In this document: positions 18,284 to 58,600 of the stretch, piece by piece
Numbering within the stretch: position 1 is the stretch's first letter
How the letters are laid out: every line of letters starts with the position of its first letter
Assembly: GCA_964567895.1 (NCBI GenBank)
Contig: CAZMOX010000002.1
Location: 6,307-70,306 of the forward strand
Length of the DNA stretch: 64,000 nt
DNA from: an uncultured Spirochaetales bacterium
Lineage (GTDB): Bacteria > Spirochaetota > Spirochaetia > JABMQR01
Direction: 5' to 3'
The notes under the pieces: generated by a model
The model's input: only the letters and a program-made list of their open reading frames with translations
The model's database searches: none
What the model was told of the DNA's origin: nothing
Made by a program: the position numbers and the translations under genes

Positions 18284-19336
18284 TTATGATTCAGTAAAGT
18301 CCATCAATTCAAGGATTAATTCCACCTCGCCCCGGGGAATCCCGGACAACTCTGCTATACGGGCGGTATCAACTCCTTCCTTTGCATAACCCTCTACAAT
18401 ATCGCGTTTAGTCATTTTTTGTTCGACCTCTTCCGGCTCATCATCCAGGAAAAAGTCTTCATCATCGTCATCAAAGTTCACTTCTTCGACTATCTCATCT
18501 TCTTCATCATCGTCATCAAAGTTCACTTTTTCTTCCTCTTCTTCTTCTTCCTCTTCTTCTTCCTCTTCTTCTTCTATGTAAATTGGCTCTGGCTCTGGCT
18601 CTGGCTCAGGTACCGATTCTGTTTCTGTTTCTGTTTCTGTTTCTGGTTCTGGTTCTGGTTCTGTTTCCGGCTCCGATCTCCGGTCTCCCGTCTCCGGTAA
18701 TTCCCTATCTTCTCCTTTATGAGAAATCATCTCTACAGCCTTTTCTGCTGCTGCTGAAATTTTAGAATCAGCAGCTTCCAGCTTTTCGCCTACTTCCCGT
18801 ACAAAGTTATCAATACACTCCACACGCGACTTTTCTACTTGCTCTAAGACTTCACCATCAAGTAAAGTTATCCGTTCCTCCAGCGCAGCTGTCTCGCGGA
18901 TAAAGGCTTCAACTTTTTTCTCCATTTCGGCAACGCTTTCTGTTTCAACTTTAAGCTTTTGTAACCGTTTTTCGGCCTTTTGCGTAAGAACACTCAACTC
19001 ATTTAAAATTCGATGATAATGAGATGTATATGACTGTAATTTTTGAAGGTCGTCAGCATGTCTGTCAAGCTCAGTTAGAGACCCGTCCACTTTCTTCAGG
19101 AGAGCACTAACGGTAATTTCATGCCCCTGCACAGAATCTTCCATAGACTCTACCGAGGTACGCATTTTTTTAAACTTCTCATCAAGTTCATCCTGCATAT
19201 TTTCCATAAGTGTTTTTACAAGATGTATTTGCCGATCTTTTTTATCCAACTGTCGGTAGAAGATAATAATAAAAATAGTAATGAGAAATAGCCCAATATC
19301 TATAAGAATATACGTTGAATTCATAACTCTCTCCAA
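18284..19336 (-). CDS. Hypothetical membrane-anchored coiled-coil protein with hyper-acidic repeat region and C-terminal HTH-like segment
   Basis: N-terminal TM helix (ILIDIGLFLITIFIIIF) followed by R/K residues. Long heptad-like coiled coil. (EP)n/(ET)n/poly-E/VNFDDDDE x2 region. C-terminal IAELSGIPRGEVELILELM. Confidence 0.6.
   Translation of the reverse strand: MERVMNSTYILIDIGLFLITIFIIIFYRQLDKKDRQIHLVKTLMENMQDELDEKFKKMRTSVESMEDSVQGHEITVSALLKKVDGSLTELDRHADDLQKLQSYTSHYHRILNELSVLTQKAEKRLQKLKVETESVAEMEKKVEAFIRETAALEERITLLDGEVLEQVEKSRVECIDNFVREVGEKLEAADSKISAAAEKAVEMISHKGEDRELPETGDRRSEPETEPEPEPETETETETESVPEPEPEPEPIYIEEEEEEEEEEEEEEEKVNFDDDDEEDEIVEEVNFDDDDEDFFLDDEPEEVEQKMTKRDIVEGYAKEGVDTARIAELSGIPRGEVELILELMDFTES
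18527..18670. repeat. Coding microsatellites: (CTC/TTC)n poly-Glu, (GGCTCT)4, (TCTGTT)4, (TCTGGT)4, plus a 27-bp direct repeat (18459-18481 / 18505-18527)
   Basis: Hexanucleotide tandem arrays encode the EPEPEP/ETETET tracts of the 18284-19336 ORF. Confidence 0.85.
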
Positions 19337-31320: not shown

Positions 31321-32118
31321 CTATACTCCCATTTCTTTTGAAAATCTTACAATTTTCTTTGCCAGTCCTTTATCCGAATTTATAGTAACTACAACCCCTT
31401 TTAAGGCTGCTGGTGTATCAGCAATTTGATTCTTTAACGGGATTTGGGTCATTTGACGCTTGATTGAAATTTCCGGCTCACTGCCAATTACACTCATCAC
31501 CGGTCCGGTCATCCCGATGTCTGTGATATAAGCAGTACCTTTGGGAAAAATACGCTCATCAGCCGTTTGAATATGTGTATGGGTACCCACGACTGCTGCT
31601 ACCGTACCATCAAGGTAAAGAGCCAGTGCTTCCTTCTCTTCAGTAGATTCAGCATGAAAATCAATAAGTATACAGGTATTCGGCCGTTTCACCTGCTGTA
31701 CAAGTTCTTTACCTATCCGAAAAGGACAGTCAATGGTACTCATATGCATCCGCCCCTGAAGGTTGATAACGACTACCTCAATTCCCTTAACCGTTATCGC
31801 AGCTACGCCTTTTCCGGGGACACCCGGGGGATAGTTAGCAGGCCTGATTATCTTCCGTGTGCCGTTCAGCATTGGATAAATCTCATTCTTCTGCCAAATA
31901 TGGTTTCCCGAGGTGATAATATCCACACCCGCTGCAAATATAGCATCGGCAATTTCAGGAGTTATGCCAAATCCATCAGAAGCATTTTCTCCATTTGCAA
32001 TTACCACATCGGCACGATAATCTTTAATTAACTGTTTTAATCCCATAAAAATAGCCCTGTTCCCAGGTTGACCACAAATATCACCTAAAAATAGGGCTTG
32101 TATATCTTTTCCTGACAT
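31321..32118 (-). CDS. ymdB: YmdB-like metallophosphoesterase (2',3'-cyclic nucleotide phosphodiesterase family, TIGR00282-like)
   Basis: LFLGDICGQPG, GNHIWQK, and the calcineurin-like pattern. Conserved position immediately downstream of rny, as in Bacillus. Confidence 0.8.
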   Translation of the reverse strand: MSGKDIQALFLGDICGQPGNRAIFMGLKQLIKDYRADVVIANGENASDGFGITPEIADAIFAAGVDIITSGNHIWQKNEIYPMLNGTRKIIRPANYPPGVPGKGVAAITVKGIEVVVINLQGRMHMSTIDCPFRIGKELVQQVKRPNTCILIDFHAESTEEKEALALYLDGTVAAVVGTHTHIQTADERIFPKGTAYITDIGMTGPVMSVIGSEPEISIKRQMTQIPLKNQIADTPAALKGVVVTINSDKGLAKKIVRFSKEMGV

Positions 32119-32140
32119 AATTCCATCTTTTACCTGCTGA

Positions 32141-32204
32141 TTTCACAGCTTACTTGCTGATTTCACAGCTTACCTGCTGATTTCACAGCTTACTTGCTGA
32201 TTTA
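32141..32204. repeat. 20-bp tandem repeat TAC[C/T]TGCTGATTTCACAGCT x3 plus a degenerate 4th copy. It fills the rny-ymdB spacer and overlaps the rny stop.
   Basis: Direct reading: tacctgctgatttcacagct / tacttgctgatttcacagct / tacctgctgatttcacagct / tacttgctgatttatcagcg. Confidence 0.9.
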
Positions 32205-33737
32205 TCAGCGGGCGTATTCCACAACCCGTGTTTCACGGATTATTGTAACTTTTATTCTTCCAGGATAACGCATCTCTGCCTCAATTCTTTTGGCTATCTC
32301 TTTAGCAAGTTCTTTGGCTTTATCATCACTTACAGATTCATAGTTAACAAGAATCCGCAGTTCACGACCAGCCTGAATTGCATAAGCTTTATCAACACCT
32401 TCAAAACTTTCGGATATCCGCTCAAGATCCTCAAGCCGTTTCACATAATTATTCAGTGTTTCTCTTCTTGCCCCAGGTCGTGATGCTGAAATTGCATCTG
32501 CAATCTGTACAATTACAGACTCTATGCAACTAGGTTCAACATCATTATGATGGGACAGGATTGCATTAATTACACGTGGATCCTCACCAAGTTTTTTTGC
32601 CATTTCCGCACCCATTTCAGCGTGGTTAGCATCACTCTCAGTTTCAACTCCCTTACCGATATCATGCAGTAGTCCGCCCCGTTTTGCTATTTCACGGTCT
32701 GCGCCAATTTCTGCTGCAATCATACCCGAAAGGATGGCAACTTCTTTTGCATGATACAATACATTTTGTCCGTAAGAAGTACGAAAATAGAGCCTTCCCA
32801 GTATTTTCACAGTTTCCTGACTCATACTATGGATTCCAAGATCAAAGAGTATCTTTTCACCCTCTTCCATAATAGTTTTTGAGATCTCCTTTGTCACCTT
32901 CTGAACTACTTCTTCAATTCTTGCCGGATGTATTCTTCCATCCTGAATCAGCCGGCCCAGTGCAACCTTGGCAATCTCTTTTCTTACCGGATCAAAACAG
33001 GAGATAACAACGGCTTCCGGTGTATCATCAATGATAACATCAACACCAGTCAATGTTTCCAAAGTTCTGATATTTCTCCCTTCCCGGCCAATAATACGGC
33101 CCTTCATCTCGTCGCTCGGTAGACTGACTGAACTAATAGTCACCTCTGAGCTAACATCAGTAGCAATACGCTGAATGGATGTTATAATAATATCACGTGC
33201 CAGTTTATCAGCCTTAAGTTGAGCTTCCTGTTCGATTTTATTAACAACAACCTGTGCGTCATGTTTGGCGTCATTCAACATAGATTCCATGATAATTTGT
33301 TTCGCTTCATCAGAACTCATTCCGGCAATTCTTTCTAATTCTGACAGCCATTTTGCCTCTTCAGCAGTCAGTTTTGTTTCCCTAAGTGATAATTTTTCCT
33401 CTCGGTTTGATAGCTGTTTTCGACCATTTTCTAATTCAGTCTGCTTCCTTTCTAGATTTTCTTCTTTCTGCAGCAGTCTTCTTTCCAGCCGCTGCAATTC
33501 ACTTCTTCTTTCTCTCGTCTCACGTTCCTGCTGTTGTCTCTCTTTCAGCAGTTGATCTTTTGTTTCAAGTAGAAGCTCTTTCTTTTTTGCTTCTGCTTCT
33601 TTTATCGCTTCCTGATTCAAACGCGCAGCTTTCTGTTCAACTGAAGTCAGTTGAAACCTGGCATAGACCAAACGAAATATCCAACCTAGAATCAAACCTG
33701 AGAGAAGAAATAGTACTGAAAATATATACCGCGGCAT
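32205..33737 (-). CDS. rny: Ribonuclease Y
   Basis: N-terminal TM, coiled-coil, KH domain (GREGRNIRTLETLTGV), HD domain (LLHDIGK). 510 aa. Confidence 0.92.
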   Translation of the reverse strand: MPRYIFSVLFLLSGLILGWIFRLVYARFQLTSVEQKAARLNQEAIKEAEAKKKELLLETKDQLLKERQQQERETRERRSELQRLERRLLQKEENLERKQTELENGRKQLSNREEKLSLRETKLTAEEAKWLSELERIAGMSSDEAKQIIMESMLNDAKHDAQVVVNKIEQEAQLKADKLARDIIITSIQRIATDVSSEVTISSVSLPSDEMKGRIIGREGRNIRTLETLTGVDVIIDDTPEAVVISCFDPVRKEIAKVALGRLIQDGRIHPARIEEVVQKVTKEISKTIMEEGEKILFDLGIHSMSQETVKILGRLYFRTSYGQNVLYHAKEVAILSGMIAAEIGADREIAKRGGLLHDIGKGVETESDANHAEMGAEMAKKLGEDPRVINAILSHHNDVEPSCIESVIVQIADAISASRPGARRETLNNYVKRLEDLERISESFEGVDKAYAIQAGRELRILVNYESVSDDKAKELAKEIAKRIEAEMRYPGRIKVTIIRETRVVEYAR

Positions 33738-48835: not shown

Positions 48836-49302
48836 CCGTTCCTCCTTGTGACTAAATCACAAAAAAATTAAAAATTTCTCATTTCAATTTCTTCTGTCGT
48901 GAACCGAGACCCTGTATTCCGCATTTTCTGAATTAAACAAAAGGAAGCGTTTAGGAAGGATCCAGAGGTTAGACAGAGGGAATTGAATTCTCCTGAATAA
49001 CATAGCACAGTATATACTGCCTATTGCCTGGACCACCTAACCACCCGTTTAAATCAATTTTATCAGCAGGATGATGGGTTTGGTTCTGACCAAAAAAATA
49101 TGACCTGAATACTCACAAAGTGCCTGTTACAGGTCGCACCTTGCAGAATATATTCTGTATTCAGTTTTTAGTCAATAGCAGTTCTTTACAAAGTCAGCAT
49201 TTATTCTATTTAACAAAAATATATGCATTTTCGTAAAAAGAGCCGGATAAAACCGGCCGCTATTAACATGATGCTCGTATAAAAAATACGAAGTATTTTT
49301 TA

Positions 49303-49345
49303 TTTTGCAGTATTCAGCTTAATAAAATTAAGCGGAATACTGCAT
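49303..49345. other. Nested near-perfect hairpin GCAGTATTC-AGCTTAAT-aa-ATTAAGC-g-GAATACTGC in the rpsG-tuf spacer
   Basis: Direct reading; ~17 paired positions with a single-base bulge. Confidence 0.6.
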
Positions 49346-49361
49346 GATAGTACTCCGTCAA

Positions 49362-49440
49362 TACTATCCGTGAAGTTTTCAAAATGAAAACCTCAAAACA
49401 ATGCTCGTTCTATCCGTGAAGTTTTCAAAATGAAAACTTC
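49362..49440. repeat. ~34-bp tandem duplicate ATCCGTGAAGTTTTCAAAATGAAAAC[C/T]TCAAAA. The second copy contains a perfect GAAGTTTTC-N5-GAAAACTTC palindrome. It sits in tuf's upstream region.
   Basis: Two adjacent copies at ~49362-49397 and ~49406-49440. Confidence 0.85.
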
Positions 49441-49471
49441 AAAATAAAAAAACTTTGTTTTTTTATACAAC

Positions 49472-49954
<483 letters not shown>

Positions 49955-53500: not shown

Positions 53501-54800
53501 TTCCTTCAACAAGTACAGGCTCAAAAGCCTGAATTCCCAGCCGGTGCAGTGTCGGCGCCCTGTTCAGAAGAACCGGGTGTTCTCTTACGACATCATCAAG
53601 TATTGACCATACTTCCCGAGTCTCCTGTTCAACCAGACTTTTTGCTTTCTTTATATTATAGACAACACCTTTCTGAACAAGTTTTTTCATGATAAACGGT
53701 TTATAGAGTTCCAGAGCCATCTTTGCAGGAAGGCCACACTGATGCAGTCTCAATTCAGGTCCTACAACAATAACGGAACGTCCGGAGTAATCAACACGCT
53801 TTCCAAGAAGATTCTGCCGGAACCGGCCTTGTTTCCCTTTCAGCATATCAGAGAGGGATTTCAGGGGTCTGTTTGAGGCTCCTTTAACAACCCGTTTTTT
53901 CTTGGAGTTATCAAACAGCGCATCAACTGCCTCCTGAAGCATACGTTTCTCATTTCGTATGATAATATCCGGTGCATTAAGAGCCATCAGACGTTTAAGT
54001 CTGTTATTTCTATTTATAACACGTCGATACAGGTCATTAAGGTCTGATGTGGCAAATCTTCCACCATCGAGCTGAACCATTGGCCGCAGCTCAGGCGGTA
54101 TAACAGGAATTATGTTGAGTATCATCCACTCAGGCCTGTTTCCCGAGTCGCGGAAATTTTCCACAACTTCAATTCTTTTTAGAAGTCTCTTGTCCGCTTT
54201 TGATCCCTTTTTAAGCATCTTTACCCGAAGTTCTGCAGAGAGTGCATCAAGGTCAAGGTTTTCAAGAAGGGTACTTATAGCTTCAGCACCAATGCCTGCT
54301 GAAAAGTTTTCTCCATAACGTTCACGAGCTTCATAATACTCTTCCTCAGTAAGCATCTGCCGTTCCTTGAGATCGGTATCGCCCGGATTGGTAACTACAT
54401 ATTTTTCATAGTAGAGGATAGATCGAAGAACGGCTATTGTCAGGTCGAGCAGGAGTCCCATTCTTGAGGGAACTGAACGGTAGTACCAAATATGAGATAC
54501 AGGAGAAGCCAGTTCAATATGACCCATACGTTCACGTCGAACCTTAAAGTGTGTAACCTCTACCCCACAGCGGTCACAAATAACCCCTTTGTAACGGATA
54601 GACTTAAACTTACCACAATAGCATTCCCATTCTTTAGTTGTTCCGAAAATTTTCTCACAAAACAGCCCATCCTTTTCCGGTCTGAGTGTTCGGTAATTTA
54701 TAGTTTCCGGTTTCTTAACTTCGCCGTATGACCATGATTTAATCTGGTCTGGTGAAGCCAATCGAATCATAATGCTATCGAAATCCTGAATTTCTCTCAT
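50514..54800 (-). CDS. rpoC: DNA-directed RNA polymerase subunit beta'
   Basis: Zinc-finger [37 protein letters not shown] catalytic motif. 1428 aa. AGGAG RBS 8 nt upstream. Confidence 0.98.
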
Positions 54801-54825
54801 TCGATGTTCTCCTGGAATATCTGCC

Positions 54826-54911
54826 TGTGAAAGCAGTATAGTAATACTGTAAAGCAGTATAGTAATACTGTAAAGCAGTATAGTAATACTGTAAAGCAGT
54901 ATCTTGTAATA
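54826..54911. repeat. 21-bp tandem repeat CTGTAAAGCAGTATAGTAATA x4 (the last copy is a variant). It lies in the rpoB-rpoC spacer and starts 26 bp upstream of the rpoC ATG.
   Basis: Direct reading of 54826-54911. Confidence 0.9.
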
Positions 54912-54970
54912 TGCCCCCGGGAATTTTTAAAACCAACGGAAGCCAAATATACATCTAAAACTAAAATCCC

Positions 54971-57900
54971 TTAGAATTGGGATCCCTTTTTACTAATCAA
55001 CTCTTCATCACGTTCAGTTAAAGGAATCTGCTTCCCTTTGGAGTCATATATTGACATATCCAAAGCAAGACCTCTCAGCTCCTGTACCAGTACGTTAAAT
55101 GATTCAGGCATGCCTGCATTAGAAGACGGTTCGCCTTTTACAATACTTTCATAGATCTTAACTCTACCATTCATATCATCAGATTTTATGGTAAGCAGTT
55201 CCTGAAGTGTATTAGCAGCACCATATGCTTCAAGTGCCCAAACTTCCATCTCACCAAGTCGTTGGCCGCCAAACTGCGCTTTCCCACCCAGCGGCTGCTG
55301 AGTTACCAGTGAATAAGGTCCTGTTGAACGTGCATGCATTTTATCATCAACAAGGTGTGCAAGTTTAAGAATATATACATAGCCTGCAAATACCGGGTTA
55401 ACAAATAGTTCACCGGTTTTTCCATCACGGAGTTCCGTTTTTGAGTCAACTGGTAATCCTGCTTCTTTCATCTTGCTTTCAATTTCTCCAATTGTTGCAG
55501 ACTGAAAGACAGGAGTGGAATACCACTCGTCCAGCTCATCAGCAGCCCAGCCCAACTGGGTTTCAAGAAGCTGTCCAATATTCATACGAGAAGGCACACC
55601 AAGTGGATTCAAACAGATATCAAGAGGAGTTCCGTCATGCATATACGGCATCTCCTCTTCCGGAAGAACCCTTGCAACGACACCCTTATTTCCATGGCGT
55701 CCCGCCATCTTATCGCCTTCACGAAGTTTACGCTTTTTAGCCACAAGGACTTTTACTACTTCATCAACACCTGGTGACAGATCATCACCCTCAGAGCGCT
55801 TAAGCCGCTGGACATCAATTACCGTACCCTCTGTTCCGTGGGGAACTTTAAGAGATGTGTCCCTAACTTCTTTAGCCTTCTCTCCAAATATAGAGTTCAG
55901 CAGTTTAAATTCAGGAGTGGTATCAGACTCGGATTTAGGAGTTACCTTTCCGACCAGAATATAACCGGGTTTAACTTTTGCCCCAATTCTGATTACTCCA
56001 TCCTCATCAAGCTGTTCAAGAGTCTTCTCGCTGGTGTTTGGTATATCACGGGTCAGCTTCTCAGGCCCAAGCTTTGTCTCCCGTACATCTATAGTAAATT
56101 CTTTAATATGAATTGAAGTGAAGATATCTTCTTTAACTACTTTCTCAGAGATCAGAATTGCATCCTCGTAGTTATATCCATTCCAGGGAACAAATCCTAC
56201 CAGTACGTTTCTCCCTAATGCCAGCTCTCCGCTTTTTGTAGCGGGTCCGTCAGCAATAACCTCACCCTCTGCAACAATCTGTCCGCGTGTAACAATAGGT
56301 TTTTGATTAAAACAGGTATCCTGATTTGTACGCTGAAATTTCAGGATCTCATACCTGTCAACTTCACCTTCAATCTGTGGTTCATCAGGTTCAATTACGA
56401 TTGAGTAGGAGGTTACATGTTGAACAACACCTGCCCGTTTTGCCTTTACCAGAACTCCTGAGTCATAAGCAGTCTTTGCTTCCATACCCGTTCCCACTCT
56501 TGGCGGTTCGGGGAAAAGCAGCGGTACAGCCTGACGCTGCATATTCGATCCCATCAATGCCCTGTTTGCATCATCATGCTCAAGGAACGGAATCAGTGAT
56601 GTAGCTACAGAAATTACCTGTTTGGGAGAAACATCCATATACTGGATTCCATCCGGCTCTTTAGTGATATAATCACCTGATCGACGAACAGAAACGAGTT
56701 CATCCAAAAACTTTCCATTCTCATCTATTTTGGCATTTGCCTGAGCAATATAATATTTCTCTTCATCAATAGCTGAGAGATATTCAATCTCTTTAGTTGC
56801 TTTACCATTTTCCACTTTCCGGTAAGGAGTTTCGAGAAATCCGTAATCATTCACTCTTGTATAGTTAGCAAGTGATACTATAAGACCAATATTCGGTCCT
56901 TCAGGAGTCTCAATAGGACACATTCTGCCATAGTGTGTATAGTGTACATCACGAACCTCAAATCCCGCACGATCCCTGGACAAGCCTCCCGGTCCAAGTG
57001 CATTCAGTCTACGTTTGTGAGTAAGTTCCGCAAGCGGGTTCACCTGATCCATAAACTGACTAAGCTGACTTGATCCGAAGAACTCTTTAATTGCCGCAAC
57101 AATAGGTTTGATTGAGATCAGATCCTGAGGTTTAACCGTATCTGCTTCCAGATTCATTCGTTCTTTCGCAATACGCTCCATTCGGGTAAAAGCAGTTTTC
57201 AGCTGGTTCTGCAGGAGCTCGCCTACAGATCTGATCCGCCTGTTTCCCAAATGATCAATATCATCAACGTTTGATTCACCGATGTATACCTTTATAAGCT
57301 GCCTGATAGTATTGTAAATATCCTGTTTTGTAAGAACCGGCTCCTCAAGCATCTTATCGTAATCAAATTTCTTATTGAGCTTATATCGTCCAACACGTCC
57401 CAAATCATACCGCCGATAGGTAAAAAACATAGTATTAAGATCTTTTTCAGCACTCTCAAGTGTAATGGGTTCTCCAGGCATCAGCACAGTATAAATTGAT
57501 ATCAGTGCATCTTCCTTTGTCGGTTCATCATGCCCTTCTTCAACACGGGTATGCTTGGCTTCCTCAACTTCAAAACATCTGAGAATCATCTGTGAGTGAA
57601 GTGAATTTTCATGATCAAAGTCAATTATTTGAACTTTTTTTACCCCTGAATGAATAAGCTCATCTATTTCATGCGGATGCATTTTATCACCGGCACGGTA
57701 GAGTTTCTTTAATTCAGCTTCACCATCTGCACCGGTACTTTTCATATACACATCTTTAAAGAGAATAGTATCAACCAGACTCTCTTTCACCTTTTGCTTT
57801 CTGGAAAGTGTTACAGATTTTGCTTCATAGTAGAGTTCAAGTATTTTTTCCCGAGAATCAAATCCAAGAGCCCTGAGAAACAGAGTCGCAAGAATTCTTT

Positions 57901-58600
57901 TTTTCCTGTCAACCTTGGTATAAATGAGGTCTTTTTTCTGATCAACTTCAAATTCGAGCCAGGAACCACGGTATGGAATAATTCTGGAGGAGTAAATCCC
58001 CTTTTCATTAGAAAAGATTACTCCAGGAGATCTGTGTATCTGACTAACGACAACACGTTCAGCACCATTTACAATAAACGTGCCCCGGTTTGTCATAAGC
58101 GGGATATCACCTACATATATGTGTTTCTGCCTTATTTCACCTGTTTCCAGAAAAATAAGGTTTATTTTCGCCTTGATCGGAACTGAGTAGGTTAAGCCTT
58201 TCTTCTTACACTCATTTTCCGTAAATTTAATGTTATCCTCATCAAGATTATACCCGACATATTCGAGCATCATATCGCCGCCCGGGCTCTCAATGGGAAA
58301 AATAGACTGGAAAACTTCTTCCAGTCCCTGAAGTGCAAGAGGTTCATTCTTCAGGAGTGAATCCCGCTGAAGAAACTTCTCGTATGAAGAGAGTTGAATA
58401 TCAACCAGATTGGGAAGTTCCATAACCTCTGCAATCTGTTCCCCTACATACTTTCTTATAATCGCATTGCCGCTGGCAAGCATCGCCACCCCCTGATTAG
58501 CTGAGTCAAGAGCACAAAAGGCTGCTTCCTTCCTCTTTAATCCAGTAGAAATATCTCTACTCCAAAAAAAACTTTCTCTTCCAAAGACACAACCGGCCAC
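54971..58600 (-). CDS. rpoB: DNA-directed RNA polymerase subunit beta. The likely true start is the internal ATG at ~58483 ([30 protein letters not shown]).
   Basis: Conserved N-terminal [17 protein letters not shown] and C-terminal [18 protein letters not shown]. The first ~39 codons of the ORF-track model ([14 protein letters not shown]...) look non-coding. Confidence 0.97.

Follow-up and report, generated by a model that had tools for sequence, protein, structure and literature searches.

A strain-variable 21-nt minisatellite between rpoB and rpoC in an uncultured spirochaete

The spacer between rpoB and rpoC of this uncultured spirochaete contains a head-to-tail array of short repeat units whose number differs between strains that are identical in their spacer flanks. 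The array is a hypervariable VNTR. We regard it as probably a near-neutral intergenic minisatellite of slipped-strand origin, located in an unconstrained part of the spacer.

In the window, i.e. the whole stretch of 64,000 nt that was analysed, rpoB and rpoC are part of an rplK-rplA-rplJ-rplL-rpoB-rpoC-rpsL-rpsG cluster with the usual arrangement. Gene calls on conspecific contigs give an rpoB product of 1170 aa. The spacer covers 170 nt (54801-54970), with the ATG of rpoC at 54800 on the minus strand, and is organized as follows.

54971..58483, minus strand: rpoB, RNA polymerase beta subunit (open reading frame 54971-58483/58600), NCBIfam equivalog TIGR02013, 1734 bits
54911..54970, minus strand: 60 nt of unique sequence on the 5' side of the spacer; a homologue exists only in the sister species L101
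54825..54911, minus strand: whole tandem array, four 21-23-nt units with the sense consensus TATTACTATACTGCTTTACAG, from TRF, exact matches and allele parsing
54911/10-54889, minus strand: unit 1, (T)ATTACAAGATACTGCTTTACAG, a variant in which AAG replaces T of the consensus
54888-54868, minus strand: unit 2, TATTACTATACTGCTTTACAG, perfect, exact 21-mer match
54867-54847, minus strand: unit 3, TATTACTATACTGCTTTACAG, perfect, exact 21-mer match
54846-54825, minus strand: unit 4, TATTACTATACTGCTTTCACAG, a variant with a 1-nt insertion
54801..54824, minus strand: conserved block with the ribosome binding site (RBS), GCAGATATTCCAGGAGAACATCGA, kept in relatives down to ~84% RpoC identity
50514..54800, minus strand: rpoC, RNA polymerase beta' subunit, 1428 aa, NCBIfam equivalog TIGR02386, 1838 bits

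The four-copy 21-bp repeat that a preliminary description had placed in this spacer is real. TRF reports it at 54825-54902 with a period of 21, 3.7 copies, 98% matches and a score of 147, and the exact 21-mer occurs twice in the window, while none is expected from shuffled sequences. The array thus consists of direct head-to-tail repeats with a unit in the ~10-100 nt range of VNTR loci. The 170-bp gap and the intact, adjoining AGGAG are likewise borne out by the sequence; this Shine-Dalgarno motif (SD) is located at 54813-54809 on the minus strand, 8 nt 5' of the rpoC ATG. In some details the first account needs adjustment. The last copy is indeed a variant, but the first copy is one as well, so that both ends deviate, and the array does lie close to the rpoC start, at a distance of 24 nt rather than ~26. 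The minus-strand orientation of the genes has to be added, as has a perfect palindrome at the unit junctions, which had gone unmentioned. At the far end of the spacer, a weak, terminator-like hairpin (54963-54986, minus strand; 8 pairs including 3 G·U, with a U-rich stretch 3') carries the rpoB stop codon in its loop; the relative with 91% RpoC identity also has its rpoB stop in a hairpin loop.

Conspecific contigs were found by exact-protein look-up with S12 and L7/L12 in JGI, ENA and Logan metagenome assemblies, which recovered ~20 contigs with 99.3-100% identity to the window. The preliminary description had made the repeat depend on its presence in independent assemblies; ten independent contigs from ten samples span the spacer, and all ten contain it. 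Spacers of 128 nt with 2 units (L003, L014, L015), 149 nt with 3 units (L002, L004, L005), 170 nt with 4 units (L013, identical to the window allele) and 191 nt with 5 units (L001, L016, L018) were observed, with flanks that are 100% identical across the 2-, 3-, 4- and 5-unit alleles. Hence, in the ten contigs and the window, copy number varies between strains within conserved flanks, as it does in VNTR loci.

The variation extends to strains that are otherwise indistinguishable. Compared with the 4-unit window, L003 has 2 units and 0 mismatches over 11.5 kb, while L011 and L018 have 5 units and 0 mismatches over 15.3 kb and 5.9 kb, respectively. In a table of 32 SNP sites, the reference haplotype is combined with 2, 4 and 5 units, and a haplotype differing only at position 54615 with 2, 3 and 5 units. 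Because contigs without any SNP differ in their units, and the same numbers are seen on different SNP backgrounds, this comparison of contig sequences indicates that units are gained and lost recurrently and much faster than point substitutions occur, which is the mode of change that defines a VNTR. None of the 11 alleles has fewer than 2 units. Together with the persistence of an array in the sister species, the lack of shorter alleles might point to selection for at least 2 units, albeit in a small sample.

The alleles are consensus contigs from short-read metagenomes, in which chimeras between strains are possible. As every allele stems from such assemblies, the assemblers may have collapsed or expanded the repeat and thereby feigned differences in copy number; only the Logan contigs (k=31) are interrupted within the array (L006, L019), and several contigs from JGI stop beside it (L013, L018). 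We give this explanation hardly any credence. The k=141 of the ENA assemblies exceeds the length of the array, which is at most 107 nt, so that a collapse is unlikely, and the ENA contigs still show 2 and 3 units. The JGI contigs show 3, 4 and 5 units, L013 has the allele of the window, and two further tandem loci show independent variation in these samples.

To place the array in its lineage, RpoC was used as a query. A GTDB search with residues 1-200 gave Spirochaetales and Treponema MAGs with 79-83% identity as the best among the matches listed; the window species itself was not among the matches listed, and the many Firmicutes that were served again as control loci. A search with full-length RpoC yielded a graded series of relatives named Spirochaetales or Spirochaetia, whose rpoB-rpoC junctions are given here with the RpoC identity.

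L101, sister species with 91.7% nucleotide identity, RpoC 97%: spacer of 206 nt with three diverged 22-nt units
L102-L104, RpoC 91%: spacer of 158-254 nt with a single copy, AAGATACTGCTTTAACAGGCAG, at the homologous position 5' of the RBS
L105, RpoC 87%: spacer of 44 nt
L106, RpoC 86%: spacer of 93 nt
L237 and L238, RpoC 85% and 84%: spacers of 121 and 120 nt, respectively
L239, RpoC 82%: spacer of 17 nt
L021-L028, Treponema-like, RpoC ~80%: 8-nt overlap (ATGCGTGA) or 13-23 nt, with the exception of L025 (120 nt)

The unit was found in none of the relatives with 82-87% RpoC identity, and across the series only the block GCAGATATTyyAGG(G)AGAmCwTCGA-ATG, the ~25-nt RBS region, is conserved. In the sister species the stem of the repeated palindrome is kept and its loop is changed (ATACTG-CTTGCA-CAGTAT); two of the units have this new loop in common, a sign of array turnover. 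The array therefore occurs only in the species and its sister, and the comparison indicates that a single segment, already present before, was expanded in this lineage alone, within a spacer that varies freely in other respects. The presence of an array at this junction had been called unusual, and this assessment stands: the Treponema-level relatives have overlapping or closely spaced genes, and TRF placed no array in the rpoB-rpoC spacer of 72 control loci, with one array just upstream of rpoC left unplaced.

These observations fit the following course of events. A single ~21-nt segment 5' of the rpoC RBS would have been tandemly duplicated in the common ancestor of the species and its sister, and units would later have been gained and lost via slipped-strand mispairing in replication, or by unequal recombination. 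Such an array would be tolerated because the spacer appears to be unconstrained save for the last ~25 nt, which contain the SD and the start context.

Other repeats are seen at the same junction in two relatives. The 91% relative has a 48-nt tandem unit in the spacer, which differs from the 21-nt unit and duplicates the rpoB stop codon together with a hairpin, ACTCAGTTC-TAAT-GAACTGAGT. This unit is present three times in L102:5731-5852 and L104:1-103 vs once in the MAG L103 (NCBI GCA_023139255.1); L102, L103 and L104 encode identical RpoC, and the spacer lengths of 158 vs 254 nt result from the two additional copies. In L025 (Spirochaetia bacterium MS499-44; L025:4006-4125) the 120-nt spacer is a long, nearly perfect inverted repeat of CGCGAAT(T/G)AA units. 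It is unrelated to the array and represents a repeat-rich rpoB-rpoC junction of independent origin.

The junction between two units creates a perfect 6-5-6 palindrome of 17 nt, ATACTG-CTTTA-CAGTAT, and a further stem-loop is predicted at the 3' end of the array.

54902-54886, 54881-54865 and 54860-54844 (within 54844..54902), minus strand: three perfect 17-nt palindromes, from an inverted-repeat search
54821..54836, minus strand: terminal stem-loop CUGCUU-UCAC-AGGCAG, -5.3 kcal/mol, from RNAfold

Since the 3' arm of the palindrome crosses the unit junction (CAG on one side, TAT on the other), it takes tandem units to form the palindrome, and in the single-copy relative L102 the 3' arm is absent. 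During replication, the hairpin formed at the junction would probably stabilize slipped intermediates and so raise the slippage rate. As RNA, each junction hairpin is weak, with -3.7 kcal/mol predicted by RNAfold. The terminal stem-loop is composed of the last unit and unique sequence directly 5' of the RBS; it also occurs in L101 and L102, with different loops, and is not kept past the 91% relative. A positionally conserved stem-loop directly 5' of the rpoC SD was considered for the window, L101, L102, L105 and L106 and then dropped: it is unclear in L237 and L238, and is also contradicted by L239, where the spacer has just 17 nt.

The spacer as a whole folds somewhat better than shuffled sequences (MFE z = -2.07), and the overall fold of the array is rod-like; better folding than in shuffles is what any palindrome array would give. 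In modelled alleles of 2-7 units the array base-pairs with itself, with a probability of being unpaired of 0.66-0.67 for the SD and 0.51 for the AUG. Because of this self-pairing and the constant accessibility of SD and AUG, copy number is predicted to alter neither RBS accessibility nor translation initiation. If the array pairs internally and the RBS stays just as accessible whatever the copy number, the array would lack a dedicated function and would hardly affect rpoC expression, if at all. The thermodynamic model thereby points to near-neutrality.

The same folding could be read as cis-regulation at the RNA level, in which the repeated hairpins of the rpoBC mRNA would govern its processing or stability or tune translation, e.g. 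as a target of an endoribonuclease or by protecting the 5' end after cleavage, so that rpoC would be uncoupled from rpoB and copy number would tune the output of beta'. We consider this unlikely. It would agree with the hairpins and the rod-like array, with the distance of only 24 nt to the rpoC start codon, with the lack of a 1-unit allele and the persistence of an array in the sister species, and with a stem that is conserved between the two species while the loop varies. It would also agree with the gene arrangement, as the separation of rpoB and rpoC in close relatives vs their overlap in Treponema suggests that rpoC initiation is independent here. However, the single hairpins are weak, RBS accessibility is predicted to be the same whatever the copy number, and the perfect palindrome is a by-product of the unit junction that is absent in the 91% relative. 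A kept stem with a changed loop would be expected for a selected hairpin, and equally from recent common descent; neither compensatory stem changes nor covariation were seen between the window species and its sister. Upstream of the RBS block nothing is conserved at 82-87% RpoC identity. An Rfam scan of the spacer gave 0 matches at the gathering score, and a permissive scan gave eukaryotic and viral noise (E >= 0.18). Finally, strains with identical backgrounds differ freely in copy number, contrary to expectation if the element were dosage-critical within an essential operon.

A related possibility, which seems very unlikely to us, is that the array is a selected, tunable part of the core transcription machinery, and that natural populations use its hypermutable copy number to adjust how rpoC is translated, how rpoBC mRNA is processed or the ratio of beta to beta'. 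If so, it would be a contingency locus in an essential housekeeping operon, and the repeats beside ymdB and after rpsG, described below, would be further examples. We found no support for a regulatory role of the array.

Regulation could also act on the DNA, with the array providing tandem weak sigma-70-type promoters for rpoC (TTTACA-17-TACAGT per unit pair) or phased dimer operators. A promoter scan indeed finds TTTACA-17-TACAGT twice within the array, with 9/12 matches, and the 17-bp palindromes follow each other at 21-bp intervals, i.e. about two helical turns. Promoter-like sites are nevertheless not enriched (3 vs 1.9±1.3 in shuffles), and the sister species has not kept the motif (TTGCAC...CACAGT, 22-nt period). 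The half-sites are 5 nt apart in the window species and 6 nt in its sister, a difference that would be poorly tolerated by a dimeric DNA binder, array periods of 20, 21 and 22 nt speak against helical phasing, and the palindrome is found nowhere else in the 64-kb window. Taken together, we judge a role as promoter or operator to be very improbable. LexA boxes have a half-site spacing of 10. A resemblance to such a box (TACTG...CAGTA) was rejected, as the spacing in the array is 5-6 nt and varies between the sister species.

The spacer is crossed by open reading frames in the sense direction, one of which carries heptads encoded by the repeat.

54775..54954, minus strand: spurious 59-aa sense ORF with TALQYYY heptads, overlapping the rpoC start; frameshifted in L101, with stops in L103

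This raises the question of whether a small ORF in the repeat is translated and hands ribosomes to rpoC by translational coupling, in the manner of MIRUs, with 21 nt, or 7 codons, keeping the frame. Both the 59-aa ATG ORF (54954-54775) and a 49-aa TTG ORF (54946-54797), which ends as ATGA on the rpoC start, cross the spacer, and the period of 21 nt preserves them at every copy number. These ORFs come free, though, because the unit lacks stops in all three sense frames, which is the only reason why the 59-aa ORF is open, and the ATGA overlap follows from the conserved Met-Arg start of RpoC. The ATG of the 59-aa ORF has no well-placed SD, and rpoC has a strong SD of its own. A Pfam search with the 59-aa sequence gave no match. 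Moreover, a frameshift in the sister species and stops in the 91% relative disrupt the peptide, no dispersed copies of the unit were seen, and the rny-ymdB array has a period of 20 nt, which is not a multiple of 3. Small-ORF coupling was rejected, since the ORF is not conserved; we rate it as highly improbable.

The stop-free repeat does explain gene-calling artefacts. On the 5-unit contig L001 a spurious 66-aa ORF was called (L001:5355-5555), and the RpoC called in the sister species has 53 aa too many (1481 aa; L101:6001-10446). In the protein cluster of the spurious ORF only the 66-aa form, corresponding to the 5-unit allele, is indexed, on 5 contigs, so an attempt to use this cluster as an allele counter failed.

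The array is not the only unstable site in the region. In a base-by-base comparison over ~35 kb, only three indels of more than 2 nt were found among conspecific strains, namely at the rpoB-rpoC array and at two further repeats, and each of the units has a short palindrome of its own. In agreement with the preliminary description, the two further repeats are unrelated tandem duplications in other operon spacers; both proved to be strain-polymorphic.

32130-32203, minus strand: rny-ymdB VNTR, 20-nt unit GCTGTGAAATCAGCAGGTAA x3.7, between rny (32205-33737) and ymdB (31321-32118)
49364-49437, minus strand: rpsG-tuf duplication, 46-nt unit x1.6, directly 3' of the rpsG stop at 49472; missed by TRF

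The rny-ymdB spacer has 46, 66 or 86 nt among conspecific contigs (L107-L116), and the rny stop codon lies in the first unit. The rpsG-tuf unit contains the palindrome GTTTTC-ATTTT-GAAAAC; four contigs (L004, L005, L007, L014) have one unit fewer, and 23 nt of the unit are kept 3' of rpsG in the 91% relative (L104:5610-5632). The units of the three sites (21, 20 and 46 nt) are unrelated in sequence and length.

It had been proposed that such arrays hint at a genome-wide repeat-generating process or a recurrent regulatory device. Neither proposal finds support. Tandem arrays with a period of at least 10 occur at 3.1 per 100 kb in the window vs 2.2 in the controls, which comprise 778 kb at the corresponding loci of 72 other bacteria, and vs 3.3 in Treponema-like loci. 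As for a common device, the units are unrelated and none is dispersed, RBS accessibility is predicted to be constant, and only the RBS block is conserved. Within the 64-kb window no other copy of the 21-nt unit was found with up to 3 mismatches, nor was there one elsewhere in the fetched conspecific or related loci. A metagenome-wide scan with the 17-nt palindrome ATACTGCTTTACAGTAT gave at least 120 matches; those listed were single chance matches, none extending beyond 20 nt.

Some additional features of the window were noted. The motif CTG-N-TTTCACAG is 11/12 identical between 54825-54836 (minus strand, last rpoB-rpoC unit) and 32137-32188 (plus strand, rny-ymdB units). It does not recur elsewhere in the window and is not significant outside the two arrays; its occurrence in both, on opposite strands, is possibly due to chance. 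The minus-strand ORF 18284-19336, with a product of 350 aa and only sub-threshold Pfam matches, contains a cluster of coding repeats at 18495-18698 (CTT x16.7, TTCTGT x8.5, TGGCTC x4, TCCGGTC x4.9), which may be length-polymorphic as well. Between rpsG and tuf, fusA is absent, and a 636-nt non-coding gap is found instead (48836-49471), with several long hairpins, e.g. GCAGTATTC...GAATACTGC around 49345-49305. Relatives have a gap of 390-510 nt at the same place.

Among known repeats, the array corresponds best to the bacterial VNTR or minisatellite loci used for MLVA typing, including those of the spirochaetes Leptospira and Borrelia. Like these, it has a short unit of tens of nucleotides, is arranged head-to-tail and intergenic, varies in copy number in near-identical strains, shows homoplasy across backgrounds and has a presumed slipped-strand origin. 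Unlike the typed loci, it is part of an essential operon, rpoBC, at a distance of 24 nt from the start codon of rpoC, its unit junction forms a perfect palindrome, and it comes from an uncultured environmental population and not from typed isolates.

Other repeat families match less well. The REP/BIME elements of enterobacteria are genome-wide and GC-rich, with stable stems and usually alternating orientation. The array resembles them in its short palindromic units in an intercistronic operon region and in its possible mRNA hairpins; it differs in being local, AT-rich and directly tandem, with weak stems (-3.7 kcal/mol) at a single locus and no other copies found. Contingency loci or phase-variable repeats, e.g. 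in Neisseria and Haemophilus, are built from units of 1-8 nt, act on promoter spacing or reading frame, and belong to surface or virulence genes. The array likewise is a hypermutable tract close to gene expression signals, but its unit has 21 nt and is located 5' of the intact RBS of an essential gene, where the model predicts a nil effect on RBS accessibility. MIRU units measure about 40-100 nt. MIRUs are dispersed, apparently mobile and present at many loci, unlike the array with its 21-nt unit at one locus; no dispersed family was found in the 64-kb window or in the conspecific and related loci, and the ORF, although present, is unconserved, as its sequences in L101 and L103 show. What the array has in common with MIRUs are tandem units in an intra-operon spacer, a polymorphic number, a position beside the downstream start codon and an open frame through the units (PMC12548453). 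In MIRUs, an internal ORF couples to the downstream gene (PMC12548453). In a literature search no tandem repeat of a bacterial rpoB-rpoC spacer was found described, and only papers on chloroplast and Acinetobacter spacers were retrieved.

The kind of element is well known already, and its biological importance is little. Only if copy number affected rpoC expression, which is unlikely, would the array be a rare hypermutable switch in the core transcription machinery. In practice it is a hazard for assembly and annotation, leading to contig breaks, an over-extended RpoC and an indexed spurious 66-aa gene. At the same time, the rpoB-rpoC, rny-ymdB and rpsG-tuf repeats form a three-locus, MLVA-like marker set that is usable directly in metagenomes and separates strains of this uncultured spirochaete that are otherwise identical over >10 kb. 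For the organism itself, the finding means that the rpoB-rpoC junction of an essential operon can hold a fast-evolving minisatellite, provided that the last ~25 nt before the start are kept.
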